This document shows, piece after piece, positions 1-47,700 of a stretch of 47,757 bases of DNA. The notes under the pieces were generated by a model. That model was not told the DNA's origin. It made no database searches and saw only the letters and a program-made list of their open reading frames with translations. Positions within the stretch are counted from its first letter, which is position 1. Each line of letters begins with the position of its first letter. This DNA comes from a virus (taxonomy: Duplodnaviria > Caudoviricetes), in the IMG/VR virus record IMGVR_UViG_3300032231_000005, positions 1 through 47,757 of that record; one strand, given 5' to 3'. The position numbers and the translations under genes are program-made.

Positions 1-2195
1 CCAACTCTCGGCGGGTTCTCAAGGTTGTGCCTACGCCATATATTCCGGCGGTGGCGTTGACCGTCTAACTTCCGGCACGTTGGGCAATGTTCTTCTGTAC
101 TGCCTAGATACCATTGCATCATAGGGTTGTACTTAGCACTATCTAAACCACGCGAATACGCCGGATTGACTGTGCCGTTTATCCACATGCGGGGCTTCTG
201 TGCGATCTCATCATCACTAATGCCATTATCAGAATATATATCCCGTGCTAAACGCCGGACGATGGGTGTCATGGATAGCTTCAATGCGCGTATAGTATCA
301 AGATCATCTTGCGTCAATGCGCCGTCAGCTACGCCACCCTGAATAAGCCCTGCCTCGAAGGCGCGTTCAATGTGTACACCTATCGTGGTCCTAAATCGTT
401 CTCTAAATGTGCTTTCGGGCATGTTGTCAGCTTGTGCGCGTTCTAACAATCTGCGAAAGTCTGCCTCAGCATCAGCCCTCACATTTGAAATCGCCTTAAT
501 CGACATGCGCTTACCCGCCTTTTCTAGCGTGTTCCCGCCCTCGCTATCTGCATCGTAATTGTCGTTGACGTAGCGCACAATGTCCTGTGGCACTTGCTCA
601 AATGTGAATGACGACTGCGCCTTGCTAAATCCCTTGCGCCGGATGTAGTCGAAGTATGTTTTGAGTTCGTTGAATTGCTCATAACTAACGGTGCGTTTGG
701 TTTCCGTGTCGTCTATTTCGTCGGTTTCTTCTTCGGTCTGCTCCGTCTCAGCTTCAACTAGCCCCGCTTCTTCTTCGAGTACCTCAACTTGCGCTTCACT
801 TTCATCGGCTTCTGACTGCGCGTTTAAAACCGCCGCCTCTGCGTACTGTTGCGCGATAGCTTGGTCTGTCGCTTCGGGGTCGTATGGCACATTGTCGCCT
901 TCGATGATACCGCCTAATGTGCTAGACGGCGCAATTTGCAGTTTCAGCACCGCCCAATCATCCAGCATTGACACCTTAACCCAATCGCCACCTGACATAT
1001 ACAAGTTTTCTTTTTCAGCTAATGCGGGGTCAACCACACCATCGCCTGCTAACTGCGCGTCCTGAAGTGACATCGTACCACGCGCAACCTTCATATCTAT
1101 TATTCTGTTCTTTTCTTCTGCGGTTGGCTGTAGGAAGGGTACGGTATCCTCAACTACTTCAATGCTGTAACCATCGCCATAGAATGGGACTGCTATTCTA
1201 TCGGTCATTCTGGAGGCGTACCACATGACACGCGGTAACACCCATGAGTACGCCCAATCGCGTCCGTCTTCACTGCGCGATAGCCCCGACTCGACCTCGC
1301 TCGGCAATATCAGTGATAACGGAACTTGGAAAGTCGCCGCGATTTTCATGGCGAGTTGCGTATCAACTTCAGACGTATTGAGGTCTTTGAACGCTGGCTG
1401 TAACTGCTCATATTCCCATCGCGTAGGGGTCACTAATACCTTACCCTGCTTGCTAGAACCCTTAAACAATCGCACCAAACGCTCCCTAAGACCGCCTGAC
1501 GGGTCGCCACCTTGAACAGTACCCGCTTGCATAGCCATTAAACTGTCTTGTGTCGGCTGGATCGCTAACGCCGGAACTGCACCGTTGCGGAATATCGCCA
1601 GCGTGGTTTGATCTACTTCGATATTTGCCTCTACTGACTTAAGCGCAACCTCTGCGGGGCTAACACCGTCCCAATCGTCGAATAGATCAATATCATTGAA
1701 GAATAGCGCATCGTCAACAGGAATATAATACCCGTCAAGCTCTTTTGCAAGGTCATCACCCGTTAGCCCCGTTCTGGATATATGCCAACCCTTAACCTCG
1801 TTGCTTAGTGTGTAATCCCTAACGATGATTGTCGGGTTGACCCATGTCAATTTTAGCGGGCGTTCCGTATACGCTTTGGTGATGTAATCAAGTGACCAGC
1901 CGTATATGGACGTGGTGGTTTCATTACGTTTCATCATATCTGTGAAGTTGTAATTAGGTGCGACCAGTTGCGATAATGGGTGCTTGTCCGGCAGTTTCTC
2001 GCCTTCAAACTTCGCCTCAAAACGCACGCGGGCTACGGCTTGCGCCCGTATGTTGGTGGCGGTGTACATATACGGTGAAATGGAATACAGCCACGCCAGC
2101 GCGTCACTGTTGTAATTATTGCCTATGCCGTACTGCCCACCTTGTCCGCCTATCCACGACTTAATAGAGGAGTTGACGTACTCATGTTGCGCCAT
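1..2195 (-). CDS. Portal protein fused to a C-terminal MuF/head-morphogenesis-like domain (truncated at left edge)
   Basis: Absent from the ORF track because it has no stop in the window. Manual translation from ATG 2195 is open for 731 codons to the edge (MAQHEYVNSSIKSW...HPLSQLVAPN...GVSPAEVAL...IFRNGAVP...IAATFQVP...TEEHCPTCRKLDGQRHR). HK97-type portal motifs; directly downstream of terL. Confidence 0.9.
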   Translation of the reverse strand, partial: MAQHEYVNSSIKSWIGGQGGQYGIGNNYNSDALAWLYSISPYMYTATNIRAQAVARVRFEAKFEGEKLPDKHPLSQLVAPNYNFTDMMKRNETTTSIYGWSLDYITKAYTERPLKLTWVNPTIIVRDYTLSNEVKGWHISRTGLTGDDLAKELDGYYIPVDDALFFNDIDLFDDWDGVSPAEVALKSVEANIEVDQTTLAIFRNGAVPALAIQPTQDSLMAMQAGTVQGGDPSGGLRERLVRLFKGSSKQGKVLVTPTRWEYEQLQPAFKDLNTSEVDTQLAMKIAATFQVPLSLILPSEVESGLSRSEDGRDWAYSWVLPRVMWYASRMTDRIAVPFYGDGYSIEVVEDTVPFLQPTAEEKNRIIDMKVARGTMSLQDAQLAGDGVVDPALAEKENLYMSGGDWVKVSMLDDWAVLKLQIAPSSTLGGIIEGDNVPYDPEATDQAIAQQYAEAAVLNAQSEADESEAQVEVLEEEAGLVEAETEQTEEETDEIDDTETKRTVSYEQFNELKTYFDYIRRKGFSKAQSSFTFEQVPQDIVRYVNDNYDADSEGGNTLEKAGKRMSIKAISNVRADAEADFRRLLERAQADNMPESTFRERFRTTIGVHIERAFEAGLIQGGVADGALTQDDLDTIRALKLSMTPIVRRLARDIYSDNGISDDEIAQKPRMWINGTVNPAYSRGLDSAKYNPMMQWYLGSTEEHCPTCRKLDGQRHRRNIWRRHNLENPPRV

Positions 2196-2239
2196 TAAAT
2201 CATGATGTGATTGGAATCTATTTTTAGGTTGTATATATG

Positions 2240-3670
2240 TCATAATGTGAACGCCTCAAAACTCATTGACCCTGCACGCATAGCGCGGTACATCAACGCC
2301 ACCGCATCAATATAATCATCGTGACCGCCGTCAGGGTGTGTGTACCGCCATACGCCGGATTGTGTTTGCTTGGCAATGAACGACCTGAATTCGTGCTTTT
2401 GCGCTTCGATGTCCATTAACTTTATCTCTCCTGAGTGTAGCGCGTGGTGTAACCCTGTCATCAAATTTGCCTTATCTTTCGATGTGAACACGAAACCAGA
2501 TACACGCGCCGTCGCCTCATGTTCACGCATTACATTATTCAACCCTGCAATGATAGATGTCTGTAACCCTGTGCTATCACCTAACACGCTTAACACGTTC
2601 CATTTTACGCACTCTAGCGCGATACGCCTGTACTGTTCGTCCCAATTCTTTACGTTATTCATAACAAGCGTGGCAACTTGAACGCCGTCGCCTAAACAGC
2701 CTATGGATAACACCGTCGCGTCATTGCTATAGCCAAAGTCCAACCCTGCGACGTATTGCTTACTTTCGTCCGGTTGGCTGGTATTCAACGCGGTATCGAA
2801 AAAGCCCTGTGTGTCACCAAAGAAGCCGTCGCCGGAAACAAGGAAACAACTATGAATGTCTTCGGGATACTCTTGTTTGAACTTAATAGGGTCTTGCTCG
2901 ACACGAAACCGTCGCCATTTAATTTGTTCTAAATCTAAGTTGTGCAATCGAATAAGTTCCGATTCCTCACTATCTTTTAAAATAATAATTTCGCCGTCAT
3001 GATCTAATGGTATACGCAAGTCTGGCTCATCAAACCACCTATAAAAATGCAACTTGTAAAACGGATTGCCATTGTAAGCGTCCATCACCATATTGTAAAA
3101 CTTGCCCTGCGCTCCGTTGGCTGTCGACTCTAGCCATACCTCCCCATGTAACGGCATCGCACCAAAGATAGCCGTCAATACGTCCGCTTCATTCTTCCAG
3201 TACGCAACCTCGCTACCATGAAAGAATGTAACCGTACCCGCCCGGGTGCTTTCAGGGCTACCCGCCGTGAATATTTGATCTTCACTATTGTATAACGGGT
3301 ATGTCATCATACTCGCTGAGGCTTCACCCCTCACGGGTTTAAAACCATCTGGCAATTCATCGTAAAAACGATTGCTGATGCGCCGTAACTTTAGCGTATT
3401 GCCTTTGTCGTTAGCCATTGTCGCTGACAAGCATGATCCTGTGGTTAATAGCCGGAACTTGCGCCCCTGCACATAGGTGGATACCCCGCGCTTACGTGGT
3501 TTGATAACGAGGTTGCGTAACGCCTTATGCTTGTCAATGTCAAGTTGAATAACGTTGTACTCAAATGGCACGATGTTAGTACGCTCATCTTGGATTTTAA
3601 GCAGGTGACGTGCAAACAAGTAATCGCTATTGGCGACTTGGGAGGGCGACGGCATGTTAGCTATCATCAC
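2240..3670 (-). CDS. terL: Terminase large subunit
   Basis: Walker-A-like KPRKRGVST, FHGSEVAYW Walker B, coupling motif ESTANG, nuclease GLDFG...DAT and C-terminal HDDYIDA. Confidence 0.95.
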   Translation of the reverse strand: MMIANMPSPSQVANSDYLFARHLLKIQDERTNIVPFEYNVIQLDIDKHKALRNLVIKPRKRGVSTYVQGRKFRLLTTGSCLSATMANDKGNTLKLRRISNRFYDELPDGFKPVRGEASASMMTYPLYNSEDQIFTAGSPESTRAGTVTFFHGSEVAYWKNEADVLTAIFGAMPLHGEVWLESTANGAQGKFYNMVMDAYNGNPFYKLHFYRWFDEPDLRIPLDHDGEIIILKDSEESELIRLHNLDLEQIKWRRFRVEQDPIKFKQEYPEDIHSCFLVSGDGFFGDTQGFFDTALNTSQPDESKQYVAGLDFGYSNDATVLSIGCLGDGVQVATLVMNNVKNWDEQYRRIALECVKWNVLSVLGDSTGLQTSIIAGLNNVMREHEATARVSGFVFTSKDKANLMTGLHHALHSGEIKLMDIEAQKHEFRSFIAKQTQSGVWRYTHPDGGHDDYIDAVALMYRAMRAGSMSFEAFTL

Positions 3671-4178
3671 GCCTCATCATATCTTCCCAAGTGAATGTTA
3701 CTTCGCCCTCATGCGCCACCTTGTCAGTGAACATGGCGTATGCCTTACCGAGGTGCACCAGTGCTTTCTGCGGGTCGTGTAACTCGAATTCAAATATTTC
3801 AGTCTGGCGCTCTTCACCGTCCTTATCGGTCACAATGGTGATGGTCTGCTTAATCTTTTTTATCAGGTGGGTGATCCCCGCCTCTTTTGCTTTCTTAATA
3901 TCTAAGGTTAGAGTAGCGGGGTCGATGAAGTCGCCTATGTCTCCCCTAGCATGTGCGGACAAGCGTCCTAACACTTCATCACGCGATAATGATTGTCCCC
4001 TTAAGAGTTCGTCAATAGCACTCTGTATCTTATGATTTCTTAAGTTTCCATGACCGATAACTGCTAACGTGTTGTCATCGCCCGCATAACCAGCGCGACG
4101 TGCCGACTCGGTGGCGTTCAATGTCTGTGCATAAGCGTCCACAAATGCTTTTTGTTTGCCTGTTAATTTACTCGCCAT
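3657..4178 (-). CDS. terS: Terminase small subunit
   Basis: LTGKQKAFVDAY..LNATESARRAGY HTH N-terminus typical of TerS; overlaps terL start. Confidence 0.93.
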   Translation of the reverse strand: MASKLTGKQKAFVDAYAQTLNATESARRAGYAGDDNTLAVIGHGNLRNHKIQSAIDELLRGQSLSRDEVLGRLSAHARGDIGDFIDPATLTLDIKKAKEAGITHLIKKIKQTITIVTDKDGEERQTEIFEFELHDPQKALVHLGKAYAMFTDKVAHEGEVTFTWEDMMRRDDS

Positions 4179-4181
4179 AAC

Positions 4182-4436
4182 CTACCCCGTGCTACTACCT
4201 TTTATCTCAACGTCGTACAAGTCCATTGCGTCCCGAAGCGCGTCTAATATAAAGCGGTACTGCTTGAAGTCGCCTGTAACACGCTGAACTCTATATAAAC
4301 CATCGAATTCAATGTCTAAGCGGATGTTGTACTTACGTAGCCTGTCTGCTAAAAAGTGCCACATAATATGGCGTTCGCTAGCATCATTAAACCTACGCTC
4401 TATAACGTTCTCTAATGCTGTTTGCTCATCCCTCAT
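4182..4436 (-). CDS. Hypothetical protein directly upstream of terS
   Basis: 84-aa ORF with SD CAGGTG, stop 3 nt before the terS start. Confidence 0.7.
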   Translation of the reverse strand: MRDEQTALENVIERRFNDASERHIMWHFLADRLRKYNIRLDIEFDGLYRVQRVTGDFKQYRFILDALRDAMDLYDVEIKGSSTG

Positions 4437-4489
4437 ATTTCACCTGCCCTATATTCACTTACAATAATTCACGCCATTCGAGGTTAGCA

Positions 4490-5272
4490 TCAACCATGAT
4501 ATAAACGCATTGAGAAATTGCCGAACACTACGAGGTTGTTATTCGACGCATTAACCGCAGTCAATCTAATATCAGCCCCGACAGGGTATCCGCGTCCATC
4601 TACATAATCAATTAAATCTTTGGGGTCTAGCACCAAATCGTCTTGGCTAGTCCATGACCCCCCATTGTTGCGTACCCTTAACTGTGCCTCTGCCTTGCCC
4701 GTCCCACCACTACGTAACACCTTCCCGCTACATTGATATAATTTAGCATCTGCTATAGTGTCGCCGTTATGGGTTACGGATGGAATTGTATAAATAGCCA
4801 TTCGTGTTTGCCCAGTTGACGGCATTATTTTAGCGACCTCTGTACCGCCAATTGTGATTGATATAGTCCCTTCATTAACACCTGTACTGCCAGCCATAAC
4901 GACAAAAGCACGATAGCTACGATAACCATCTGGGTCAACGGCTACCGCAGTTGTGCCATTCATGTTTGCGGTTGCCATAAATTCGACAAAACTATCATCT
5001 TGCCAAACGACAGCTACTGTTCTAGCACCTGTCCCTAGCAATGTGTCATTAACGTTGTCGGACACAATCTCCAATGCCCCCGCACTTGCAGGGAATGGAT
5101 AGACAAGAACAGTAGCCCCGCCGTCCCATATGTCTGCTGGCGCAGATTCGCTTACCGTACTGTCAACGTCCGTATTACGCCCAAATTTGAATACTGGGGT
5201 GTACCCAATAGGTTTACCCTGTATTAACTCTGTGAGGCTTTGATCTGCCCCGCCAAAACCATCAATTGGCAT
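4490..5272 (-). CDS. Putative virion structural/decoration protein
   Basis: Beta-rich, G/T/A-rich; FKFGRNTDVD...IWDGG...DTLLGTGARTV resembles a recurrent phage structural family. Confidence 0.5.
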   Translation of the reverse strand: MPIDGFGGADQSLTELIQGKPIGYTPVFKFGRNTDVDSTVSESAPADIWDGGATVLVYPFPASAGALEIVSDNVNDTLLGTGARTVAVVWQDDSFVEFMATANMNGTTAVAVDPDGYRSYRAFVVMAGSTGVNEGTISITIGGTEVAKIMPSTGQTRMAIYTIPSVTHNGDTIADAKLYQCSGKVLRSGGTGKAEAQLRVRNNGGSWTSQDDLVLDPKDLIDYVDGRGYPVGADIRLTAVNASNNNLVVFGNFSMRLYHG

Positions 5273-5281
5273 CGCGCCCTC

Positions 5282-5596
5282 CTATTCGTATAATGTAATC
5301 GTTACCGTTGCACTAGCGACATCCGATATAATCTTAAAATTGTTCAGGTTGTTATACCCGTATACATCAATGGTAGCTCCAACCGCGATCACATGCCCTA
5401 ACCCTGACACCGTAGGCGTAGACCCCGTTAACGTGTAACGGCATATTTGCCCTGTGACGGTTAGTGTCATCGCGGTGGCTTTTTTTATTTGGTCAGTTGT
5501 GAAACCGAAATCTGTTAAATCGAAGGCGGTAATACCTAGCGTGGTAGTATGCGAAACATTATCCGAAAACGCTTTGAAGACTTCTACAGCACCCAT
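5282..5596 (-). CDS. Small beta-rich putative structural protein, first gene of late operon
   Basis: RYTLTGSTPT..GH motif seen in small phage virion proteins; SD AGAGG. Confidence 0.45.
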   Translation of the reverse strand: MGAVEVFKAFSDNVSHTTTLGITAFDLTDFGFTTDQIKKATAMTLTVTGQICRYTLTGSTPTVSGLGHVIAVGATIDVYGYNNLNNFKIISDVASATVTITLYE

Positions 5597-5618
5597 AATA
5601 ACCTCTTGCTATATTAAA

Positions 5619-5657
5619 TTACCTTACAGTATACAGTAAGGTAAACAAAAATAGCAA
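5619..5657 (-). promoter_or_regulatory. Putative late promoter with palindromic operator
   Basis: TTGCTA-18-TATACT on minus strand; inverted repeat TTACCTTAC-N8-GTAAGGTAA (5619-5644) centred on the -10. Confidence 0.6.
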
Positions 5658-5746
5658 ACACGCCGTTTGGGTAGCGGTTCGCTATTTTTGCAAGGAAGCC
5701 ATAATGAATGTGCAATCAGTGTACCCTATATCCCAATTTATCGCAA
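5643..5746 (-). ncRNA. Putative small RNA unit B (promoter + anti-RBS segment + terminator)
   Basis: TTGCGA(5746-5741)-17-TACACT(5723-5718); RNA reads ACAUUCAUUAUGGCUUCCUUG then hairpin CAAAAAUAGC...GCUAUUUUUG. Confidence 0.55.
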
Positions 5747-5762
5747 GTTATGGGTGCGCCAT

Positions 5763-5873
5763 AAACGACAATAGACCCCGCGCAATGCAGGGTCTATTGC
5801 CATACAGGTGAAATATGATGAGGGTAATGTACCACCCCTGCCACCATAATACACTGTTTAGATATTATCGCAA
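5763..5873 (-). ncRNA. Putative small RNA unit A (promoter + anti-RBS segment + terminator)
   Basis: TTGCGA(5873-5868)-16-TATTAT; RNA contains CCCUCAUCAUAUUUCACCUG, then hairpin CAAUAGACCC...GGGUCUAUUG (5769-5799). Confidence 0.6.
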
Positions 5874-5881
5874 GCTATCGG

Positions 5882-6271
5882 CTATAACATGCGTAATTGT
5901 TTCATGTATACTTTGTCAGCGTGTCGCAAGGGTTGCTTGTGGATTTTCCCATGACTTGGAACAATAGAACTAAATTCGCGTAATGATCGTTGATTGCAAC
6001 CACTGTCCCACTCATACCCGTTTTCGCTAGGCAGTACCCCCTCTAATGCCTCTATGGCATCCTCCTTTTCCGTGTTGGTTACAATTTTCTTTGCGCCCCC
6101 TCCAGCCCTATCATCATACGTAACCGCGGTAAACCCATATTCAATGATACTTTCGGCACGACCCTTAATCGCATCACGCAAACCCGCCATATCTTCTAGC
6201 CATTGCTTTAATTGCTGTTTGTCGGTGCAATTTTCAATTTGTTCAATTGTTAATTCGATTTTGTCAACCAT
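5882..6271 (-). CDS. Hypothetical protein
   Basis: 129-aa ORF with SD, last gene of the leftward small-gene block. Confidence 0.6.
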   Translation of the reverse strand: MVDKIELTIEQIENCTDKQQLKQWLEDMAGLRDAIKGRAESIIEYGFTAVTYDDRAGGGAKKIVTNTEKEDAIEALEGVLPSENGYEWDSGCNQRSLREFSSIVPSHGKIHKQPLRHADKVYMKQLRML

Positions 6272-6531: not shown

Positions 6532-6893
6532 TTATCCACTTTCATCTTGTATTCATGTCTAATACCGTCCCATGACGGCACAGGGTTGTGATAAGCTATC
6601 AATTGCTTACGCCAATTTCTACCCTCAATCAACACATCATAGCAGTAATCAAACATGGCTTCCTCAATATCAATGCCGATATCATCCTTAGATTCGTAGA
6701 AAGCATATTCTGTGAGCGCGTCAAAATACGGGTAGAACCAATGCTGTTTATCAATAGACATATATACCGAGGGCTGGTAATTGATAGACCAATATTCCTC
6801 GCCATCTGGATAGCTGATGTCAATAAGCACAATCCACGCCCCCGACAGCAATTTGTTATACAATTCTTCTAACAAGTCTATCTTGCCCATCAC
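6528..6893 (-). CDS. Hypothetical protein
   Basis: ORF coupled to neighbours by stop/start overlaps. Confidence 0.6.
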   Translation of the reverse strand: MMGKIDLLEELYNKLLSGAWIVLIDISYPDGEEYWSINYQPSVYMSIDKQHWFYPYFDALTEYAFYESKDDIGIDIEEAMFDYCYDVLIEGRNWRKQLIAYHNPVPSWDGIRHEYKMKVDK

Positions 6894-7253
6894 TCACTCA
6901 CTTTCCGCACCTGCGTGCGTATTGTCCGTTTGGATAATCGACACTGATGAAAGTATAGTTGCCAGTAGCCACTTTTTGTCAGCCGTAGCGTCAGCAATCA
7001 CCTTATCGTAATCGTGGAATGTGACGGTGGCAATTTCATTTAACGGCACACATACCGTTTCCCGTACCACGCCACCAGCTTCCCAGCCCCCTGTTTCGAT
7101 GCGTAACTTATTCTGACACTTGTCAAACATGCCAGAACCATCCTCTATGCCCCAAAAACCTTTGGATAAGTCCACCCCATACGCTTCGATCTCAATACGG
7201 TGAATGTGCCTACGGAATCGCTCTAGCCCGTGTACCCTCATTTTAACTTTCAT
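6894..7253 (-). CDS. Hypothetical protein
   Basis: SD AAGGAG, coupled ORF. Confidence 0.6.
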   Translation of the reverse strand: MKVKMRVHGLERFRRHIHRIEIEAYGVDLSKGFWGIEDGSGMFDKCQNKLRIETGGWEAGGVVRETVCVPLNEIATVTFHDYDKVIADATADKKWLLATILSSVSIIQTDNTHAGAESE

Positions 7254-7692: not shown

Positions 7693-7909
7693 ATAGCCCT
7701 TGCATCAAGCTGTCACAACGCGCCTCTGTATACCGCCATTCCTCAAGGCATACCGTGAGTGCTTCGTTACGGCGTTCTAGTTTGCAATTATCATCGCAAT
7801 GGAAAAACATAAAGGATATTGTCATTAACAACAGCGTTACCACACATATTATAGTGATGGTAATCTCAATTGAATATTCGCTGATGGTATCGCGCCAGTT
7901 ACTATTCAT
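7679..7909 (-). CDS. Small single-TM, Cys-rich membrane protein (similar to 6325..6531)
   Basis: Likely start MNSNW at 7909 with SD AAGGAG; TM helix then CDDNC...C...C. Confidence 0.65.
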   Translation of the reverse strand: MNSNWRDTISEYSIEITITIICVVTLLLMTISFMFFHCDDNCKLERRNEALTVCLEEWRYTEARCDSLMQGLFDNE

Positions 7910-8594
7910 TGCTTCGCTCCTTAATCTCAATTAAGTAATCCCACTTACCCGCGTCCATGTCCATCTCAAAGCTGGCGACCATGTAATCAATCGCCAACTT
8001 GTACGCCTTAACATTAACGCTGTAAGCAAAATCACTCTCAAGGCTTCTGAACTCATTTACCGACAACCGCGTCTTACACCCCGCGCTTAATTGCAGACTA
8101 ATTGTATTTTCCCCTATATGGAGCGAGCCGTATAACCCATACTCCAAACTGTTGTTGTTAATGCTGTATATACCAACCGCGCCATGCAAGTTCGCATAAC
8201 GCAAGTTCGCACCGCGCAAGTTCGCATCACGCAAGTTCGCATAACGCAAGTTCGCACCGCGCAAGTTCGCATCACGCAAGTTCCCACCATGCAAGTCCGC
8301 ACCGCGCAAGTTCGCATCACGCAAGTTCCCACCATGCAAGTTCGCACCGCGCAAGTTCGCATCACGCAAGTTCCCACCATGCAAGTTCGCACCGCGCAAG
8401 TTCGCATCACGCAAGTTCGCACCGCGCAAGTTCGCATCACGCAAGTTCGCATAACGCAAGTTCGCATAACGCAAGTTCGCATAACGCAAGTCGATTACCT
8501 CACTCGGTTTATCTTTGTTGAGTTGGTTAAACGCGGTCACGTCTATCTTTAACAAATTGATTAATTCATCTGTTGTATATCGCTTGTCACTCAT
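7902..8594 (-). CDS. Pentapeptide repeat protein
   Basis: About 20 A(N/D)LRX pentapeptides encoded by 15-bp tandem repeats (~8181-8490). Confidence 0.93.
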   Translation of the reverse strand: MSDKRYTTDELINLLKIDVTAFNQLNKDKPSEVIDLRYANLRYANLRYANLRDANLRGANLRDANLRGANLHGGNLRDANLRGANLHGGNLRDANLRGADLHGGNLRDANLRGANLRYANLRDANLRGANLRYANLHGAVGIYSINNNSLEYGLYGSLHIGENTISLQLSAGCKTRLSVNEFRSLESDFAYSVNVKAYKLAIDYMVASFEMDMDAGKWDYLIEIKERSNE

Positions 8595-8646: not shown

Positions 8647-9027
8647 CTACCCACTGCTATCAGCGTTTTTACTATCGAATGCGCGTAACTGTGACAATAT
8701 ATCGTCTATCCCTTCATCCTCTGTGTGTGGGTTTGGGTTGGTTGAAACGATCCCAAGGTTTTGAATACTGTTGATGATCTCGGATAACTTGCCCCGTATA
8801 TCGTCCAACTCCGTTTTGTCGTTGTCATGATTGTCATAATAGAACGCCAACGCTTCTATAATTGCCTTACGTCGGTTGTTATCAAAACGGCTAACCAACT
8901 CAACAAACGCAGTAACCGCTTTCCCTTCAATTTCGCTATTTGATTCGCATAACCGAACGCTGATGTTAGTGGAGCGATAACCTAACTTACCACTCCACCG
9001 TTGATGCTCATGTAATATGCGTGGCAT
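8647..9027 (-). CDS. ParR-like DNA-binding adaptor (putative)
   Basis: Coupled downstream of the actin-like ATPase; ISVRL beta-strand followed by helices (RHH-like), coiled coil and acidic C-terminal helix. Confidence 0.55.
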   Translation of the reverse strand: MPRILHEHQRWSGKLGYRSTNISVRLCESNSEIEGKAVTAFVELVSRFDNNRRKAIIEALAFYYDNHDNDKTELDDIRGKLSEIINSIQNLGIVSTNPNPHTEDEGIDDILSQLRAFDSKNADSSG

Positions 9028-10172
9028 TATATCCCCTTACTTCGTGGTGATTCTACGACTTGCATAACACCGTTGATGATTGCGTAACGAATACGCTCTA
9101 AGGCGGCGGTTGCTTTTCTAACATGGACATCACGTCCATATTTCTCTTTGAATAACGGATATGTAGCCATACTAGCACCGCCACCGAAAACAACCAATTG
9201 ATTCCGCACACCGCCCTGCTGGTCAAATACCGTTGAAATGGCATTCAATAAGCGACTACGCAATTCATCTGCCTTGTCAGCACAATCTAATTTGCGACTA
9301 ATACCGTAAGCGTACCTACCTGTCAGGAGTGCATTAAGCACCAATGAAACATCCATCTCGTTATTGTGTTGGAATAAATCTAAGTTCTCACGCTTGATGT
9401 ATTCATATAGCTCATGATAAATCAAGCCGATGCCGATAGCATATGAGCGTGTGCCACCTTCCATGATCTCCCCATTTTTTACAACGGTTGTATCAAATGT
9501 GGTTGACCCCCCATCAAAAACAATAATTTGTTTCGACAAGTCTAAGCGCCGGTCCTCATTACCATCCTTACGCAAAGCATAAGAATAAAACGCGCCAATA
9601 GGCTCAGGTCTGCATTGCACCTCTGCGTATGAGCGCACCTTGGTAACGCCATGCCAACCCTCTATAGTGATCTCTTGCCCATTCTTCTCAATTAAATCTT
9701 TAATCCGTGGGCGAAAATCAAAATCGCGTGGAGCATGTGTTGCAACGAATTGCAAGCGAAGGCGACGGTACGACTTGTTATGATGATACACAAACTCATT
9801 AAGTGCATATGACAACGCACAAAAATATAGCGCATCAAAGTAACCCTCCACATAACGCTCAGCACCGATTTTAACGGTCAAGCATGAATCGTGATATGTC
9901 GCCACATCACCATAAGCATATAGGTGTTGCTTGTTATCGTGCGTAATCAGGGTATACCCGTGCTTTAGTCTGCCAGCTTCCATATACCGATCAATATCAT
10001 TCACATCCAACACCGCTAACCGATGCTTGAAATGAAAATCAAAGACACGATTGCCTTCGATCTCTAGCCACGGTTTACCGTCACCATTGCCGATGTCACC
10101 ACCGAAGCCACCGAGTGCAATCTTCGCAATCTGTATAACTTTCGAGTGGTCAAAATTAAATAAGTTCGTCAT
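9027..10172 (-). CDS. ParM/StbA-family actin-like ATPase
   Basis: Phosphate-1 GDIGNGDGK, connect-1 PEPIGA, phosphate-2 VFDGGSTTFD, adenosine FGGGAS; likely start MTNLF at 10172 with SD AGAGG. Confidence 0.85.
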   Translation of the reverse strand: MTNLFNFDHSKVIQIAKIALGGFGGDIGNGDGKPWLEIEGNRVFDFHFKHRLAVLDVNDIDRYMEAGRLKHGYTLITHDNKQHLYAYGDVATYHDSCLTVKIGAERYVEGYFDALYFCALSYALNEFVYHHNKSYRRLRLQFVATHAPRDFDFRPRIKDLIEKNGQEITIEGWHGVTKVRSYAEVQCRPEPIGAFYSYALRKDGNEDRRLDLSKQIIVFDGGSTTFDTTVVKNGEIMEGGTRSYAIGIGLIYHELYEYIKRENLDLFQHNNEMDVSLVLNALLTGRYAYGISRKLDCADKADELRSRLLNAISTVFDQQGGVRNQLVVFGGGASMATYPLFKEKYGRDVHVRKATAALERIRYAIINGVMQVVESPRSKGI

Positions 10173-10186
10173 CCTCTTTTCCCTTT

Positions 10187-10238
10187 GTGTACGTTTCGTA
10201 TATGCCATAGTATACAATACGTACACGCCACAGCGCAA
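10187..10238 (-). promoter_or_regulatory. parM promoter with inverted-repeat operator
   Basis: TTGCGC-18-TATACT; 16-bp arms GTGTACGTTTCGTATA (10187-10202) / TATACAATACGTACAC (10211-10226), 2 mismatches. Confidence 0.65.
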
Positions 10239-11751: not shown

Positions 11752-12017
11752 TCCGCTTGCCCCTCACTCATCACTTGCGCCTCTTGCTTATCACTATTCA
11801 TTTTGTCGTGACAATTTAGCCACTCGCCCTCAGCAACAAACTGCATGTGACTTATCACCGCTTGCCACGCTAACCTTACGTCAATGCAATCAGCGTCATT
11901 GTCACATAGCCATATACCTAACTTGCCACGTATCGCGTCAACATCGGCTATTAATTGGTCGTCTATCTCGTTAAATGCTTCTGTATATGTCCCATCAGGG
12001 TTACATACTTTACTCAT
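11748..12017 (-). CDS. Hypothetical protein
   Basis: Likely start MSKVC at 12017 with SD GGGAG. Confidence 0.55.
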   Translation of the reverse strand: MSKVCNPDGTYTEAFNEIDDQLIADVDAIRGKLGIWLCDNDADCIDVRLAWQAVISHMQFVAEGEWLNCHDKMNSDKQEAQVMSEGQAE

Positions 12018-13036: not shown

Positions 13037-13148
13037 AACCGTAGCGCGTAATAGTTGCGCCACCGTCAGTTACCACTGTGACCTTAATTGTGTCAGCGTC
13101 CACCCGTTCGGTCTTGAATTGCGCTGGCATTGATTTAAGTTGTTTCAT
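12960..13148 (-). CDS. Hypothetical protein
   Basis: Likely start MKQLK at 13148; its C-terminus is shared with the PAPS-reductase-like gene. Confidence 0.55.
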   Translation of the reverse strand: MKQLKSMPAQFKTERVDADTIKVTVVTDGGATITRYGCDVAVLYDETKRDYDGKMMSEGQAE

Positions 13149-13887
13149 TGGTCGCTCCAAATAACGATAATTGACTTCCGTTTTTAGGCATAACTACAAA
13201 ATTTAATCTATCTTTAGCCATTTTTGTATATTTAACAGAGTTATCAATATATACAAAATCCAGCCCTAACCGTTGCGCTGATACCGCAACCGTTCCAGAC
13301 CCCCCGAATGGGTCTAGTATAACTTGCGCGTTGGTAGATTTAATTATCCTATCCGATAATGCTACGGGGAACGGCGCGGGGTGCAAATTGCTCCCCGACT
13401 CTTGTTTAATACTCCACACGTCCCCCAAAGAACTCGCATTGTCCGCTAACTCAAATTGCGGTTTGGCAATTAAATAGATAACCTCATAGGTCGGCAAGAA
13501 GTAGCCGGGGTTAAAATTAATGCCTCCCGCACGTTGCCATATAATTATTTGCCGTACTGGAAAACCACTTAAAATGTCGCTACGATCTTGCAATAAACCA
13601 CCTTGTACACGCCACTTGTGATTATAAAATATCGCACCATTATCAGGAATTAAGCGCATCATCTCTGTTAGGCAAGCGCGTTGCCATGTCACATAATCAC
13701 CGTGTTCCATGTTATCATCATGTGCATTGTAACCTTCACTCAGTTCGGGCGTTTTCCATTTGCCACCTTTAGAGACACCACCTAGATTATAAGGCGGGCT
13801 AGTCACCACTAAATCAATAACACCCGCGGGTATCTTACGCATAACCTCTATACAATCGCCTGTCAAGAATTGATTTATGTAATCCAT
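13135..13887 (-). CDS. DNA N6/N4 methyltransferase (beta class), orphan
   Basis: GDCIEVM, VTSPPY catalytic motif, HPAPFP, LDPFGGSGT SAM-binding motif. Confidence 0.93.
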   Translation of the reverse strand: MDYINQFLTGDCIEVMRKIPAGVIDLVVTSPPYNLGGVSKGGKWKTPELSEGYNAHDDNMEHGDYVTWQRACLTEMMRLIPDNGAIFYNHKWRVQGGLLQDRSDILSGFPVRQIIIWQRAGGINFNPGYFLPTYEVIYLIAKPQFELADNASSLGDVWSIKQESGSNLHPAPFPVALSDRIIKSTNAQVILDPFGGSGTVAVSAQRLGLDFVYIDNSVKYTKMAKDRLNFVVMPKNGSQLSLFGATNETT

Positions 13888-15782
13888 TACTTGCCTCCTT
13901 GCTTATTCTCTGGCGCGTCAATTAATTTACCGCCCACCGTCCACTCTAGGTTACGTTTAGCCCCCACCAAATCATGCCAGCGGTCTTTAAGCACCTTAAT
14001 CTTAATCGTACCCTCTGGATATTGAAAATCCATAGATACATTGTTATCAATTTTCATCAGCGCATCATGATTGTAGATGCTAAATATCTTGTCGCCGTCT
14101 TCCTCAATATCCCCCGCGTGTTTCGCGTCCTGTAGCAATGGTTCTTTTTCTTTACGATCTTTATTATTGCGCCCCGTCTGCGATGTCACGATAACGGGAA
14201 TGTTGAATTCCTTAGCTATACTGATGTTGGCTTTTGAGTTGCGTCGTGTAACTTCATACGCCGTGCCAACCCCACCCATATTTTGGATGCTGTCAATCAC
14301 GACGTACTCATAATTATCGGCACTTAACGCGGTGCGAACATCTTCACTTGTCGGTGAACCATTAGGCAGAAAATCAAAGCAGTCCTGAACATATTCGTAA
14401 GCGTCACGAACTAATCGCTTTTTTTCGGATGGTAATTTATGCGGGCTTAATATCAGTGTCTTAAACCCAACACCCGCCAACATCGCCACCATTGACTGCA
14501 TATAATCTACGACCCCCGACTCTGACGGCACGATCAAACCGCGTGCGTTCTCGTGCATCCCTAAAATAAAAGTACGCATTAAATTTGACTTGCCCTGATT
14601 GGTCATGGCATAAAAGTAATACAGTTTAGACTTCTCAAATCCCAACGTCATACGATCAATTGCCGGAATACCACACGATAAACCCAAAAGCGCACGCGGG
14701 TGCAATATCTTATCCTCAAAATCCGCTAACGCTTGCTTGGCTATATCTTGCGATGATTGCACCGTCACACCACCATACTTTTGACGTGCCGTGGCTAGCT
14801 CGGTTGATGCGCGGTCTAGTATGCGCGTAATATCTAAATCGGTAGCGTTGGCTTTAATAGCGCGATGCAAGCCCACAATGCTGTTATTTAGCTGTGAGAT
14901 GCCATCTAAGGCATTTTTAGCATCAATAGGTGTGTTGATAGCCTCAACCGCTAAAAGCGTTAAACTGTCGATTGCCTCGAATGTGTGCAACTTGCAATAA
15001 TCTGCTAAGTCACCACCATCAGTTAAGCCCAAGTCTACAGGCTTTGCTTTCGGGATTTGTGCGTTAATCTTTTCGGTGGCTTTACGCCCCGTGTCGTCAC
15101 AGTCTAGCGCGATAATAATGTCACCCTTCCAGAGTGTATTTAACTCTGTAAGTAACTCATCTGGTATTGCCTTCTCGCCACCACCCGCCACTGTGAAGGC
15201 AGGCACTCCCACTGCTAATCCGGCGACGGTGCTAATCTCTCCGTTGCAATAGACTAACGCCTTCCCGTCTTCTTTAGCCATTTTGACCGCTTGCTTTAGC
15301 CCATACCAACACCGTTTGTAACCTGTCGGGTTGATAAACTTTGATGATACCTTGCCATTCTTGTCTATTTTCTTATCTAAAAAGCGGTGACGTGTACCGT
15401 TAGCTGTCGGGATAGCTAATGCAGGTCTATTGTGATGTGTCACTTCGCGCCAGCCTGCACGATGTAAATCATTGACTGTTACGCCATGCGCTTTTGCATA
15501 ATCTAGTATGCCAATGTATTGGCGATGGGTAGCCTCAGCGTGGGCGCGTTCAAATGCGGGGCGGTCTATGCCTAACTTGTCGCCTAATTCAAACAGGCTA
15601 CCATTTTCGTCGTGAGCATGATCGTAATACGCGCCGTGCGTATCGTCATCTATTGTCAATACAAATGCGTGACTATCGCTGTTGGCGCGAAATGGATTAT
15701 TCATGCGATATGTGCCGTCATGCTGGCGGACTACCTTGCCACGCGCTTCTAACTCGCTCAGCACCTTGTTAGCGTATGTCAT
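13887..15782 (-). CDS. Primase (TOPRIM)-SF4/DnaB-like helicase fusion
   Basis: YCNGEIS and IALDCDDTG TOPRIM motifs; AMTNQGKS Walker A, VVIDSIQ Walker B, TSQTGR, AGDIEEDGD, KDR. Confidence 0.9.
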   Translation of the reverse strand: MTYANKVLSELEARGKVVRQHDGTYRMNNPFRANSDSHAFVLTIDDDTHGAYYDHAHDENGSLFELGDKLGIDRPAFERAHAEATHRQYIGILDYAKAHGVTVNDLHRAGWREVTHHNRPALAIPTANGTRHRFLDKKIDKNGKVSSKFINPTGYKRCWYGLKQAVKMAKEDGKALVYCNGEISTVAGLAVGVPAFTVAGGGEKAIPDELLTELNTLWKGDIIIALDCDDTGRKATEKINAQIPKAKPVDLGLTDGGDLADYCKLHTFEAIDSLTLLAVEAINTPIDAKNALDGISQLNNSIVGLHRAIKANATDLDITRILDRASTELATARQKYGGVTVQSSQDIAKQALADFEDKILHPRALLGLSCGIPAIDRMTLGFEKSKLYYFYAMTNQGKSNLMRTFILGMHENARGLIVPSESGVVDYMQSMVAMLAGVGFKTLILSPHKLPSEKKRLVRDAYEYVQDCFDFLPNGSPTSEDVRTALSADNYEYVVIDSIQNMGGVGTAYEVTRRNSKANISIAKEFNIPVIVTSQTGRNNKDRKEKEPLLQDAKHAGDIEEDGDKIFSIYNHDALMKIDNNVSMDFQYPEGTIKIKVLKDRWHDLVGAKRNLEWTVGGKLIDAPENKQGGK

Positions 15783-17013: not shown

Positions 17014-17042
17014 ATTCTAATCCTCTTATTATCCGTAATAGG

Positions 17043-17146
17043 TTGCGCCATTCGCCGGACGTTGGTATAATTCTTGTTAACAATCCTTCAATGACACGTT
17101 GACTGCTTTGTGCTGAACCCCTGACGAACATCAGGGGATTTTTTAT
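17043..17146 (+). ncRNA. Counter-transcribed small RNA upstream of replication operon
   Basis: TTGCGC(17043)-17-TATAAT(17066) with extended TG; ~70-nt RNA ending CCCCUGA-cgaaca-UCAGGGG-aUUUUUU. Confidence 0.7.
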
Positions 17147-17161
17147 TTACAGCACACACAT

Positions 17162-17190
17162 AGTATATATCGTAATGGCGGAATGTGCAA
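17162..17190 (-). promoter_or_regulatory. Replication operon promoter
   Basis: TTGCAC-17-TATACT. Confidence 0.7.
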
Positions 17191-17211
17191 AGCGTTACCG
17201 GAAGTTACACA

Positions 17212-17642: not shown

Positions 17643-17703
17643 GCTTTACTCCATCCTCTTTCATTATGTAATAGGTTGCGTTATTCGTGCAAAGTAAATC
17701 CTG

Positions 17704-18309: not shown

Positions 18310-18516
18310 TCACTCACTGGCGTTATCCTCATAATAATCTTCGTTCAATTCATCTGCGGGGTCAATATCATTCTCTGCAATGTAGGCATCCGATTCACGT
18401 TGTGCCTCAGCAATTACACGTCGCCTATCTGCGAGTGGCAATGCCATGAGTTCGGTGAACGATAAGCGGTTGCTCGGCTTCCGGCTTAGACTTCTACAGA
18501 GCTTGCATTTCATCAC
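18310..18516 (-). CDS. Hypothetical protein
   Basis: SD AAGGA; LMALPLADRRRVIAE helix and acidic tail. Confidence 0.5.
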   Translation of the reverse strand: MMKCKLCRSLSRKPSNRLSFTELMALPLADRRRVIAEAQRESDAYIAENDIDPADELNEDYYEDNASE

Positions 18517-18557
18517 TCGTTATCCTTTCAACCTACTTATATCTGTAATAGGTTGGA

Positions 18558-19298
18558 TTATTTATCAATGGTTACTTCATTCACAATTGTCATCCACAAG
18601 CCGTTTGGGATAACAATGCAATCCTCGTTATCGCACGATTCAATCACATACGTCTCATCAGCGACACGCGCCAATAGCGCACGTAAGCGCGTATTCTCAG
18701 CTTCCGCCTCTAGTTGGTCATTCAGCGCAACCGTGAGTTTAGCCTCGATGTCAGCGATACGCTGTAATGTGACTGTGTTAGGTAGAATTTGCTTTACGCT
18801 AGTCATTGCTTACCCCGTCGTGGTGTTTGATCTCGTATGTCCCGTCCGGTTGCAATGTGCTTGTCGTTAGCCAACGTGTGCCAAGTGGTGGGACTTCGAC
18901 AATGTCTACCCCTTGGGATTGCTTTGTTGCCAACCCGTCAGGACTAAAAATAATTGCGTACTTTTCAACCGCGTAATCGCTAGTTCCGTCAGTCCAAAAT
19001 GTTTGTGTGACGCTAGCTCCGTCAGTGTCGGTTATCCCAAACTTGTATCCTATTACTTTTTTCATCACTTGTTATCCTTTTCGGCTTCTGTTCGCACTAT
19101 ATAGCGAATTTGTGCAGTCACACCATCGCCTAGATTGTTTAGCTCACTGCTGTACACACTCACTCTGTACAATGGCGCATTGTGGTTGACACCATGTATT
19201 GCAATATTCACATAGTTATCATCGTCACCATTATTGTTTTCAACGACGGTGATAACAACGCGCCAACTTTCTGGTAGCATATCTAATAGTTCATTCAT
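18558..19298 (-). CDS. Three coupled hypothetical proteins (18558..18806, 18799..19068, 19065..19298)
   Basis: Overlapping stop/start codons with SD motifs. Confidence 0.55.
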
Positions 19299-26209: not shown

Positions 26210-29200
26210 ATGACAGCACTATTTGACGAGGCACTAAGCGAATTTAATAAAATAAGCTCCAGCACAGAGGGACATTCTGGTACAAGCTACGGGTCATCCA
26301 ACGGTTATGAATTTGTAATCTGGATCGACAACGGGGATGACTATCCCGAACCCGAATCTGACTTAATCACGACAATAGTCGATTATGATGAAACTTTTGA
26401 GAATATGTACAAATTTACCATGACGCTAAACTTTGACACCCCACAACCAGCCACCGCAAGCGACACAGCCGACCCGCCACGCATCACGACAGGTGACACC
26501 GTCACATTAATTGGCGACCCGGTAGAGGGTACAGAGTACCGCGTGCATCTGATATTGCCCAACACCGCTTATATCGTAAATGGTGGCGGTATGAAAAACG
26601 TAGACGCGAGCCGATTACGGCTAGCACAGCCACAGCCACAGTCGACAATCGAAACACTGCAAGCGGAAAATGATGCGCTTAAGGCGAAAGTCGCGGAGCT
26701 GGTGAAAGACTTAAGCAACGCTACTAGTTTTGCAAGTTTCCTTGAATCTCGAATCGAGAAACTAGGGGTTAGAGTATCTGAAATTGAAGAAAAGATAGAC
26801 TGGCGATAACACGCAAAACAAAAGGGCGGTCAACCCACTCACGAGTAACCGCCCAAATTGATCTAACAAGGATATAAGAGGATACCATGAATTTATTGAA
26901 AGTGTCAAAATTAATGTTCTCAAAATATGGCAACACAGGCACAGAAAACACAACGGATGGCACAAAAGAACCGGGGGTACATGACCTCGTTGAGCATAGT
27001 AACGGGGCGCGGGCGATTGTTTGTAATATCGTTGATAATCCCTATTCATTTACAGAAAATCCCAACAAAGTCCTTTATGTTATCGGTGTGAACCTAAATA
27101 AAGAGGGTAAGCCGTGTAGCAAGTTTGGCGACCATTGGGGATTTGATGAAGTAACGCTAATTGCGGAGGTGCAATAATGACAATTTCAATAATAGACATT
27201 GATGGTACAAAACGGCATGTAGATTTACGCAATTGTGTTGAGTATCACACAACAGAAGGCATGGCGGGTAAATGGTTTGTGTATATTCAACCAGTCGGGG
27301 CAAGTGAGGATTTTGATCTTCGGTGGCAGATAACAGAGGAAACAGCAAAAACTCTTGAAGCCTTTTTTTCTGGTTTGTCTGCATACACGTTCGGGGGAGG
27401 GAAACAATAATGACCTACTTGACAGAAGCGGATAAGAACTGGAAGCAAGCGCAAGCGATATTGTTGGGGGTTAATAAACTTTTAAACGGCGCAATCATTA
27501 CCGACACTAACCAGCGAGAATTGTATTATTTAAAATGGTGTTTACGTTGCCTACAATCAGCACACAAACAAGGACTAATCACAACTAAAGACGCTTACAA
27601 CCTCGAGAACAAAGTGGACTGGTACAACTTGCTACTTGCCGAATTAGAGGATGTAATCAATCCAGTGTACACAGTGGCGCAGTACCCCCCGCTAGATGAT
27701 CTAACAGTCGAAGATCATAAGCGCGTAAACTTTGCGGGTATGCTCCGGTGGTGTCACATCGGATACAAGTCGCAGGTTAACAGCCTGCAAGGGTTTATTG
27801 AACTTGCGAAACTGGACGCTGACATTGCACAAGCGAAGCAATCGACGGTCACGAAAGGTAGCCCGTTGGCGAAGATCATTAGCGACCAAAAAAAAACTAA
27901 AGTAGTACCGATACCAGATGGCTTTATGGATACGCCATTTCACGAATACACAATCAGAAGTTTAAGACGTAGACGATAACTTAATTAACTAAGGGAGTTA
28001 GTGATGGAAGACCGATTAGAAGCTGAATTGAAGTATATTCGGAATGTGCTAGATAGCCCTATCGGCAATACGCGAAAATTCATATTAATAAAGGGGCTTT
28101 ATGAGGCTACTGCCAAACACGCTGGTAATTGCGTTGCCGAAAACGCGAAATTACGTAAGCAACTAGAAAAACAGACTGATGACAAAACCCGTGACGACCT
28201 CGACAAACAAGAATGGCGACACGATGAAGACACGCACAACATTGAAGACTGGCTAAACGGCAACTAGAAACCGCACGGGGGCGCGTATTGCACCCCCCTT
28301 AGACAAGGATAACAAGTGATGTTCAAATGGATAATGGATTTAATAAGACCGAAGCCAACTTTTTGGGATACCTATTTTGATAAGTTTATTATGCCTCATT
28401 GGGAACGGGGGCTACGGCATGGTATTCCTGAGGATGAATTGAACGCCATGTTCAAGGACTGTGTAGATAATTCCTATCTTGATGTTCTGCCCGGTATTAG
28501 CTTTAGAGACGCTGTAGACAATCGAATTAATGGCAAGGATAACGAGTGATGAAATGTAAGAAGTGTAAGCAAGCAATGCGAAACGACGGGAAGCAGGCAA
28601 CCGCTTGGAATCAAGTAGCTGGCAAGTTTGTGCCAACCGCTTGGAGCGAGGTCATTACGTGCGATAACAAGCGATGCACGATGTACAATTGCACGTTCAC
28701 AAACACGAATTATGGCAAGGTTGACGTAAGTAAATATCAGGAGCGCGAATGATGGGAAAGCGCAAACTTAAAAGCGAGTTTTCAACACAGTTGCAATCGG
28801 TGTCAAATCCTAACGTGACATTTGAATTTGCGATCCGTTACGATAACTATAGTGAAGAGTGGGAGTGGAAATCTATCGTTACGGACAACGGAGAAATCAT
28901 ACGTGAGATTGAAGGGCTTACATCGGTGTACGATATAGCCGTGTCAAAGATGCTTAACGTTATAAGCATTTATGGGTGGGAGTAGGCGTGATGCGATCAC
29001 GGGTCTATGAACATGACTACATAGACCCCAACTTCTAGGAAACTATAATAAAGAAAGCGAGGGCAAGTGATGAGTGATAACGACATTAACAAGTTAGAGG
29101 AAATACAGGCGATACTTGAGACTTCCGACAGCGAGGGGAAGAAGCTGACACAAATTGAGGCGTTGTTAAGCAAGCGGGGGGCGTTGTGTGAGTGTGATGG

Positions 29201-39006: not shown

Positions 39007-39272
39007 GTATTACGCTTCTTATTCATTTCTTCGACACGATCATACTCTTGCAAAACCTTCACAGTCCTAGACCCTGTTGCATACGCCACGCGCTCAATGC
39101 GCTCTAAGCGTGACATATCGTAAAACCACTCATAATTAGTCAACCCACTATCGTGCAATATGCCAATTTCGTTATAGTAGACACCACCACTGACGTTACC
39201 CTTTTTGAACGTTGGATGATCCCCGGTCTTTATTATGTCGGCTACCAATCTGCCTTTGTAACGCAGGTCGAA
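39003..39272 (-). CDS. Tail assembly chaperone, frameshift (GT-like) extension
   Basis: Overlaps the upstream chaperone in the +1 frame, which opens just before ATC TTT CGA (39276-39268). Confidence 0.65.
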   Translation of the reverse strand, partial: FDLRYKGRLVADIIKTGDHPTFKKGNVSGGVYYNEIGILHDSGLTNYEWFYDMSRLERIERVAYATGSRTVKVLQEYDRVEEMNKKRNT

Positions 39273-39804
39273 AGATGCGAAGCTGATTTACAACTTCCTC
39301 CTGTGTCACTGGCAACAGCTTTGTAATGTAGCCATCTATAATCATTTCATCGTCAGCGTTTAACGCGCAATAATAAACGGCGATTTCATAATCGTCGTCT
39401 GGTAACTCGCTACCGTATTCCTTCAAGAATGCGATTTTGTCAGCGAGGTATTCAATTAGCCCCTCACTATCGAAGTCGGGGAATGTGACATATTGATTGT
39501 AGAGAATGCGCTTGCTATCCCGTGACCGTTGACTCTCAACACGCTTGGCCTCAATTAAGTATTCAGGGTCATTGGGGTTCTCATATTCAGTTTCACCCAT
39601 AGCGAATTGCATTTTCGTTTTGTCATCAGGGTCAACAGCCACAATCGGCACGTCGGGGTCGGGATATGTTTCCTTTAGCCGTTCTTGGATTGCGTATAAA
39701 GCGCGAACAGGGATAGGGGTAATGTGTACCCTTATCCCTGTGTACTTGGTTGTGTATTCAATCACACCGCGATTAGGTGCGTTACCTAGTGATACATTAC
39801 TCAT
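39196..39804 (-). CDS. Tail assembly chaperone (G-like)
   Basis: Lies between tail tube and tape measure; acidic; NPNDPEY motif. Confidence 0.75.
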   Translation of the reverse strand: MSNVSLGNAPNRGVIEYTTKYTGIRVHITPIPVRALYAIQERLKETYPDPDVPIVAVDPDDKTKMQFAMGETEYENPNDPEYLIEAKRVESQRSRDSKRILYNQYVTFPDFDSEGLIEYLADKIAFLKEYGSELPDDDYEIAVYYCALNADDEMIIDGYITKLLPVTQEEVVNQLRIFRPALQRQIGSRHNKDRGSSNVQKG

Positions 39805-39818
39805 ATTTTCACCTTTGC

Positions 39819-46866: not shown

Positions 46867-47673
46867 CTAAAAGCGATCATAGATAGACATCTCTATGAGC
46901 TTGTGTTCTGCATTTTTGATTTCCTTTGCCAGTGTTGTGATATGCTTAATCCATAAATCACCCTCTTTTACGATTGCTATCACAAACGCTTGACCTAAAG
47001 CATAAAGATGTCTGCCTTCATACTTAATCATGAATTCAACACCTTCGGCATCCAGCGTTAATTCACCAAATTCATTGTCTACAATTCTACCAATAAGATA
47101 CAATCTACTTTCATTCATCACCATCTAGCTCCTTATACACTTCCCACAGCTTCATATAAGCGTTCTCTAGCCACAATGTGTACGCTTCCAGTGTGGTGTT
47201 ATCCATGCCGTCTTTACTTACACGCATGTTATGATGCACAACAAAGTGATTGGCGTATGCCAGCCCGTCTAATAATGAACTATCGTCCAAAACGTATCCC
47301 TCTATTTTGTGTGGGTTGCCGTTAGTGTCAAATACTTTGGGAATTTTCGGGTTATTCATTTCCTACGCCTTTCGGTATTAGCCTGCTTTTGCCACAATAA
47401 TCACTCCGACCCCTGAGCATCAATTAAATGCACATTGTCGTCGGCATCGACAATTACTTCACTAGCGACAAGCGTAAATGTTTCGGCTTCTCTATACTCG
47501 TTATCCCAATCCCAAAACACAAAGGCTTTTTTCATCGCGTCAAAACTATCGAAGAAAATCGGGGGCGTGTCTTCGGATATGTTTATTGCATATCGACCAT
47601 GTGCCATTTTAAAAACGCGAAACGTGCTTATACTACCTACGTATGTGTATATTTTATCCATTGTGATTGCCAC
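46867..47673 (-). CDS. Three small hypothetical proteins between portal and capsid (46867..47124, 47111..47359, 47401..47673)
   Basis: SD-led ORFs; two share a repeated upstream leader. Confidence 0.6.
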
Positions 47674-47700
47674 TCATTTCCTACGCCTTTCGACCTTAAC

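Follow-up and report, generated by a model that had tools for sequence, protein, structure and literature searches.

Putative small RNAs in an intergenic gap of a tailed phage and their predicted pairing with the starts of packaging and tail assembly genes

The window analysed here, the whole of record IMGVR_UViG_3300032231_000005 (47,757 nt), belongs to a tailed phage, with terS, terL, portal, capsid and tape-measure genes recognisable in it. The portal frame (1-2243, minus strand) continued past the left end of the record and no terminal repeat was found at the record ends (1-2243 and 46867-47757), so that the record is incomplete and a piece of the genome is missing. The only DNA run containing this sequence was labelled sediment metagenome and may be the source of this DNA; no sequence variants were found in that run, and no RNA run was listed as containing the sequence. 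The presence of a partition-protein-like gene (phrog_691) and of two HTH genes gave a hint of a plasmid-like carrier state, and no integrase was found among the subset of phage proteins scanned. An actin-like partition protein gene (8647-10238, minus strand) had its own promoter and a small gene downstream, which suggests a ParM/ParR-like pair and a plasmid-like state. The protein encoded at 7902-8594 (minus strand) was labelled pentapeptide-repeat-like from its sequence pattern alone. The gene at 44422-46716 (minus strand) codes for a 764-aa protein whose C-terminal part contains the major capsid domain; its long N-terminal region may be a maturation protease fused to it.

On the minus strand, ORF84 was followed by terS, terL and the portal gene. 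As the first-pass annotation had stated, the ORF84 stop lies 3 nt ahead of the ATG of terS, which matches PF03592. The ORF84 start was located 53 nt past the previous stop, and further down terS and terL overlapped by 14 nt, terL and portal by 4 nt; the spacing suits fresh initiation at ORF84, with reinitiation downstream that would be coupled. The ORF84 ribosome site was among the strongest of the 79 called genes, and an internal promoter directly ahead of ORF84 scored poorly in the promoter matrix described below. The tblastn matches of terL carried the annotation terminase large subunit. No family was found for ORF84 in family searches, Pfam and PHROG included. Its structure model (pLDDT 83) comprised two helices, two strands and one helix; at E 0.001, neither PDB nor the viral models offered a matching fold, and the Atlas gave no usable match. 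A full HMMER search returned two repeat proteins with patchy identity of 22-33%, which were rejected as homologs. At the other end of the window, the gene at 39196-39804 had no Pfam or PHROG match and received from the Atlas, as a lead, the label 'putative Tail assembly chaperone'; we consider it likely to be one. The gap between it and the tape-measure gene (39006-39196, minus strand) measures 190 nt; a frameshifted extension in this gap is common in tailed phages.

Searches for relatives yielded none that is close. ORF84, a 104-aa gene and the chaperone gene matched only themselves among 5.8 billion proteins, and locus searches with ORF84, a 260-aa gene and the capsid gene gave no relatives. 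For terL, relatives were about 40% identical over long matches, and for terS 40-49% (the entry L008 in the list of relatives is the window itself). The distant relatives L001 and L019 had other genes upstream of terS. The contig L019 also carried terS twice, in near-identical copies separated by about 4.5 kb (6544-7197 and 2018-2617).

Table 1 Features of the intergenic gap, of its putative RNAs and of their predicted targets (positions in the window; RNA ends are inferred).
Feature	Position	Strand	Remarks
terL	2240..3670 (start 3670 or 3667)	-	weak Terminase_6C match
terS	3657..4178	-	PF03592, phrog_51
Target 3: terL Shine-Dalgarno region within terS 3' end	3672..3684	-	13 contiguous bp, 11 exact Watson-Crick
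ORF84, hydrophilic 84-aa protein	4182..4436	-	coding score +0.15, SD -12.4
Target 1: ORF84 translation start	4430..4447	-	18 bp, -26.8 kcal/mol
52-bp inverted repeat	5606..5657		over -10 box and start of the terminase-operon-directed promoter
Predicted promoter of genes leading to the terminase operon	5657-5628	-	rank 8/95,418
Predicted RNA B	5640..5711	-	about 72 nt
Predicted RNA B promoter	5718..5746	-	rank 9/95,418
Predicted RNA A	5762..5839	-	about 78 nt
Exact 14-nt anti-Shine-Dalgarno/anti-AUG segment for ORF84	5805..5818	-	
13-nt part of RNA A 5' hairpin (stem and loop)	5824..5836	-	complementary to chaperone gene +5..+17
Predicted RNA A promoter	5846..5873	-	rank 13/95,418, 16-bp spacer
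Best in-genome match of RNA B: DNA methyltransferase start	13882..13902	-	19 bp
Likely tail assembly chaperone	39196..39804	-	just upstream of tape-measure gene; Atlas feature match 0.92
Target 2: start of gene 39196-39804	39788..39814	-	26 bp, two 13-bp blocks, -31.1 kcal/mol

We then considered the 285-nt gap at 5597-5881, which contained three minus-strand promoter candidates. We scored 95,418 positions with a promoter matrix whose training set consisted of six candidates from elsewhere in the genome, and these three came 8th, 9th and 13th; training sites took six of the seven places above them. The promoters of RNA A and RNA B shared a common -35 context. The RNA A unit starts 7 bases behind its predicted promoter and one base ahead of its first hairpin. 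This 5' hairpin (5838-5821) has 6 bp and is weak (-6.5 kcal/mol); it is followed by 17 bases (5820-5804) that contain the 14-mer and are unpaired according to the predicted probabilities, and then by a 3' hairpin (5803-5765) of 17 bp with a weak U tail, so that read-through into RNA B is possible. The folding z-score of RNA A was -5.0 on the minus strand compared to -2.4 on the plus strand, with 5 G-U pairs on the former and 0 on the latter. RNA B likewise showed a z-score of -5.0, with 3 G-U pairs on the minus and 0 on the plus strand; over the three hairpins of the two RNAs, 8/8 G-U pairs thus form on the minus strand and none on the plus strand. No Rfam family matched at the gathering score anywhere in the window, RNAs A and B included, and at E values up to 10 the region 5560-5920 gave seven chance-level matches only, none of the c4 family. 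Considered as a trans-encoded sRNA, RNA A exhibits a strong predicted promoter and strong folds, a weak U tail, and an accessible seed with predicted pairing to translation starts encoded elsewhere. The first-pass proposal is partly borne out: a minus-strand small RNA exposing a segment against the ORF84 start is well supported by promoter, fold and strand asymmetry, and the stretch 5839-5762 probably represents a small-RNA gene under a promoter of its own.

The same DNA might instead be read on the plus strand. Its sites would then serve two small genes there (5704-5811, 35 aa, and 5815-5967, 50 aa) as ribosome sites, or would be a functionless copy, in inverted orientation, of the start of a late gene, and no antisense RNA would act. 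Both sites indeed read as a Shine-Dalgarno sequence and ATG on that strand with open frames after them, oppositely oriented genes of this phage share starts over 15-22 nt, and promoter-like plus-strand sites are present, at the lower ranks of 39th and 139th. The two frames, however, scored as non-coding (-0.12 and -0.31, where short called genes gave +0.11 ± 0.06 and uncalled frames -0.16 ± 0.09), the longer one overlaps the gene 5882-6271 in antisense, and the match to the chaperone gene described below falls in a different reading frame and is therefore not accounted for by a common protein start. Since the frame scores are non-coding and the hairpins and best promoters favour the minus strand, we rated this explanation low, not zero, and consider it improbable.

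The exact complementarity that the first-pass annotation had reported was recovered: 5805-5818 is the reverse complement of 4433-4446, which spans both the Shine-Dalgarno sequence and the ATG of ORF 4182-4436 (ORF84). An RNA made from the plus strand at 5805-5818 would be identical to the ORF84 mRNA; complementarity therefore calls for a minus-strand transcript, like the target mRNA itself. The extension of the pairing across a 3-nt bulge also stood, and its extent was corrected from 14+7 to a total of 18 bp: the duplex has 15 contiguous bp (one G-U), the bulge and 3 more bp, or an equivalent register. Taken alone, a 14-nt match is common, not rare, with 13 inverted exact matches of at least 14 nt seen genome-wide compared to 8.9 expected. 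The chance of a 14-mer covering Shine-Dalgarno sequence and start codon, computed post hoc once the match had been seen, was 1e-4 in a 78-nt RNA, 8.5e-4 in this intergenic stretch and 0.013 in all intergenic DNA; the post hoc values for a 14-mer covering the start codon only were 5e-4, 0.004 and 0.064, respectively. The 14-mer was the longest intergenic-to-start match across this genome and five distant contigs: in the five related records, four of them incomplete, no comparable match exceeded 12 nt. The intergenic DNA itself had no match in 5/5 of these records, and two guide patterns had none in viral contigs.

The gene starts of this genome are similar to one another. The compiled set comprised 83 starts, 79 called by script (six shifted by hand) and four added; the portal start joined it later, making 84. 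Reversed gene starts equalled RNA A's best match at another start in 25/83 cases and had an exact run of at least 14 nt to another start in 10/83, mostly reciprocal pairs, and so any anti-start segment commonly finds a good partner within this genome. The inverted matches of 22, 17 and 15 nt link starts of oppositely oriented genes. Near-identical starts of small genes on opposite arms were found at 18506-18527 and 28535-28556, 19063-19079 and 28305-28321, and 11764-11778 and 29063-29077; their similarity points to duplication or shuffling of gene-start modules.

The target search with RNA A singled out the ORF84 start. The duplex energy of the guide at this start was -27.5 against a mean of -11.8 over starts, and ORF84 was the top start of the 83 with and without accessibility, as well as in co-folding with two window sizes. 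It also came first among the non-self sites of the whole genome; for a guide of 40 nt, several sites away from gene starts scored level with it. Of random 25-mers, 13/1500 matched this energy. The first-pass annotation had overlooked two more predicted targets among the assembly genes, namely the likely tail chaperone and terL itself. At the start of gene 39196-39804, second in both co-folding runs, one block pairs with the core of RNA A over 13 bp and the other with its 5' hairpin over 13 contiguous bp. Among the five starts that paired well with the core, to which this test applied, such an additional 13-bp helix beside the core match arose in 2/5000 shuffles and 15/5000 random 21-mers, and by energy it was equalled in 10/2000 shuffles. 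The terL site was second by duplex energy and third in one co-folding window, and dropped below the top six in the wider target window. Three starts with helices of at least 13 bp were reached by 7/1200 random 36-mers and by 32/4018 tiles, mostly U-rich and none with late-gene matches only. The first 36 bases of the predicted RNA A are complementary to the starts of ORF84, the likely tail chaperone and terL. All the target statistics were devised post hoc, and the second and third targets (chaperone and terL) were likewise found afterwards. A class-wide division, in which RNA A would address late genes and RNA B early genes, was considered too and found unsupported: late genes as a class were no better matched in Mann-Whitney tests, which gave p values of 0.14 and 0.54 with RNA A and of 0.07 with RNA B.

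The second unit of the gap, RNA B, begins with about 20 largely unpaired 5' bases of anti-Shine-Dalgarno/anti-AUG type, followed by a terminator-like hairpin and a U tail, and its guide segment differs from that of RNA A. Within the genome it paired best with a DNA methyltransferase start (gene 13135-13887, PF01555), which ranked 1 or 3 depending on the target window and for which 25/1500 random windows were as good. We retain this pairing as a candidate, RNA B having no single clear target. Beyond RNA B, the -35 box of the promoter at 5657-5628 overlaps the RNA B terminator stem. The exact 9-nt half-site of the 52-bp inverted repeat was found at 5606-5657 only, and this repeat may be an operator.

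One could regard all these matches as chance in a region of terminators and promoters only. Inverted matches of 14 nt or more number 13 against 8.9 expected, the probability of such a start match somewhere in intergenic DNA spans the two all-intergenic values given above, and every test was post hoc. Chance leaves aside, however, that an anti-start segment is exposed in each of two neighbouring units of promoter and hairpin, at the frequencies of 13/1500 and 25/1500 random windows, and that the two tandem promoters, which face hairpins within 60 nt, are followed by no coding gene that they could drive; we consider it very unlikely. A different possibility is that RNAs A and B are real and have host or competing-phage genes as their main targets, the matches to this phage's own starts arising from a shared style of ribosome site. 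That both guides are anti-Shine-Dalgarno plus anti-AUG, that so many reversed starts find an equal partner, that RNA B lacks a clear single target and that no class-wide late-gene bias appeared would all fit, but the 13-bp helix into the chaperone coding region, at its frequency of 2/5000 shuffles, and the exact 14-nt match to the phage's own gene are left unexplained. We regard host targets as unlikely, with some weight nonetheless. Pairing might also take place inside one long read-through transcript, by long-range or attenuation-like contacts rather than in trans. In favour of this, the guide shares its strand with the ORF84 and terL sites, which lie 1.4 and 2.1 kb from it, and the U tail of RNA A is weak. 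Against this, the RNA B terminator and another promoter intervene, and the chaperone target lies 34 kb off in the contig and, on a circular genome, would still be well beyond 10 kb downstream, which makes pairing within a single transcript most improbable.

The first-pass annotation had offered a type I toxin-antitoxin pair of RNA A and ORF84 as an alternative, for which there is a small orphan protein whose strong ribosome site is covered exactly by the RNA. Type I toxins are small, usually hydrophobic membrane proteins, and the antitoxin RNA is encoded opposite or next to the toxin gene. In contrast, ORF84 is hydrophilic (GRAVY -0.64, best 19-residue window 0.28, no hydrophobic segment) with a soluble alpha/beta model and matches no toxin family or fold, and RNA A is encoded on the ORF84 strand at a distance of 1,358 nt, from which it is separated by two genes. 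As ORF84 also sits inside the packaging operon and is one of several predicted targets, the alternative found no support and we give it hardly any credence.

On balance, we lean towards RNA A as a trans-acting repressor of assembly genes, which would block ribosome loading at three starts. It is the context, namely promoter, fold, strand bias and additional targets, rather than the 14-nt match alone, that speaks for repression. In such a scheme, a housekeeping-type promoter would make RNA A early in infection or in the carrier state, its unpaired segment would seed on an exposed Shine-Dalgarno sequence and AUG, and the weak 5' hairpin could then open and lengthen the pairing. ORF84 would be the fresh-initiation entry to the closely spaced ORF84-terS-terL-portal chain, and for this reason its block would lower terminase and portal synthesis through lost coupling or polarity. 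Leaky synthesis of terminase, portal and tail chaperone would be suppressed until late transcription exceeded the RNA A pool, and outrunning this pool would create a threshold at which packaging and tail assembly set in. In a carrier state, RNA A could also hinder superinfection. RNA B might do likewise for replication-phase genes, with weaker support than RNA A. A broader proposal, which we hold to be tentative and rather doubtful, is that RNA A carries a composite guide, overlapping parts of a 36-nt stretch addressing three virion-assembly starts in two operons (head packaging and tail), that the tandem RNA B addresses replication-phase genes, and that the two together form a two-RNA timer or carrier-state lock at translation. 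Were RNA A to gate terminase and tail assembly jointly, as a short RNA acting in trans, this would mean that phages can time virion assembly through translation thresholds, and small orphan genes ahead of terS would be possible control points of coupled packaging operons.

Among known phage RNAs, c4 of P1/P7 offers the closest comparison. In these phages, the small icd gene is coupled to ant. The c4 RNA (immI) uses short complementary segments around the ribosome binding site to block translation (PMC12197685, PMC8201110) and is encoded upstream of its target, in the same direction, in the c4-icd-ant operon (PMC8198154). RNA A, too, is predicted to pair over a short stretch with a ribosome binding site that lies downstream of it on its own strand. 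Unlike c4, RNA A matches no sequence-structure model of Rfam; its best predicted targets are assembly genes (ORF84/terS, terL and the likely tail chaperone) and not an antirepressor operon; it has its own predicted promoter, has a terminator before its targets and would reach a second operon; and its main guide is an unpaired linker, whereas those of c4 are loops. By analogy, RNA A may thus work like c4 RNA, and is not a member of its family. STnc6030 of the Salmonella prophage BTP1 acts on late structural transcripts and gives superinfection exclusion (PMC7067206). RNA A is likewise a phage RNA predicted to be directed at late structural transcripts; STnc6030, however, is a cis-antisense RNA of 786 nt, whereas the predicted RNA A measures about 78 nt, comes from another locus than its targets and matches three start sites imperfectly over short stretches.

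The sar RNA of P22 and the OOP RNA of lambda are transcribed from the strand opposite their targets. PMC12197685 describes sar and, in lambda, OOP and aQ as holding down the phage's own developmental genes post-transcriptionally, each acting on a single regulator (ant, cII and Q), with aQ transcribed from the strand opposite its target. RNA A differs from all three in being trans-encoded and multi-target. Trans-encoded multi-target bacterial sRNAs, the prophage DicF among them, use short imperfect pairing to block translation of several mRNAs (PMC12197685); DicF targets host genes, whereas the best candidates of RNA A are the phage's own packaging and tail genes. For the phage K RNAs, the targets given are predicted ones only (PMC9241854). 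The regulatory RNAs of phages in the cited papers are directed at host genes or at lysis-lysogeny regulators, or are cis-antisense RNAs of great length. In the main texts of the mostly open-access literature covered, none was described as acting in trans at the start of a terminase or tail-chaperone gene; a supplementary table of PMC12197685 lists a further 38 phage RNAs as uncharacterised.

Elsewhere in the window, strong convergent promoter candidates at 17043 (plus strand) and 17190 (minus strand) flanked a hairpin (17030-17200), and a short motif recurred beside the promoters at 17043 and 17692 (17670-17700). This region is possibly a regulatory switch with another small RNA.
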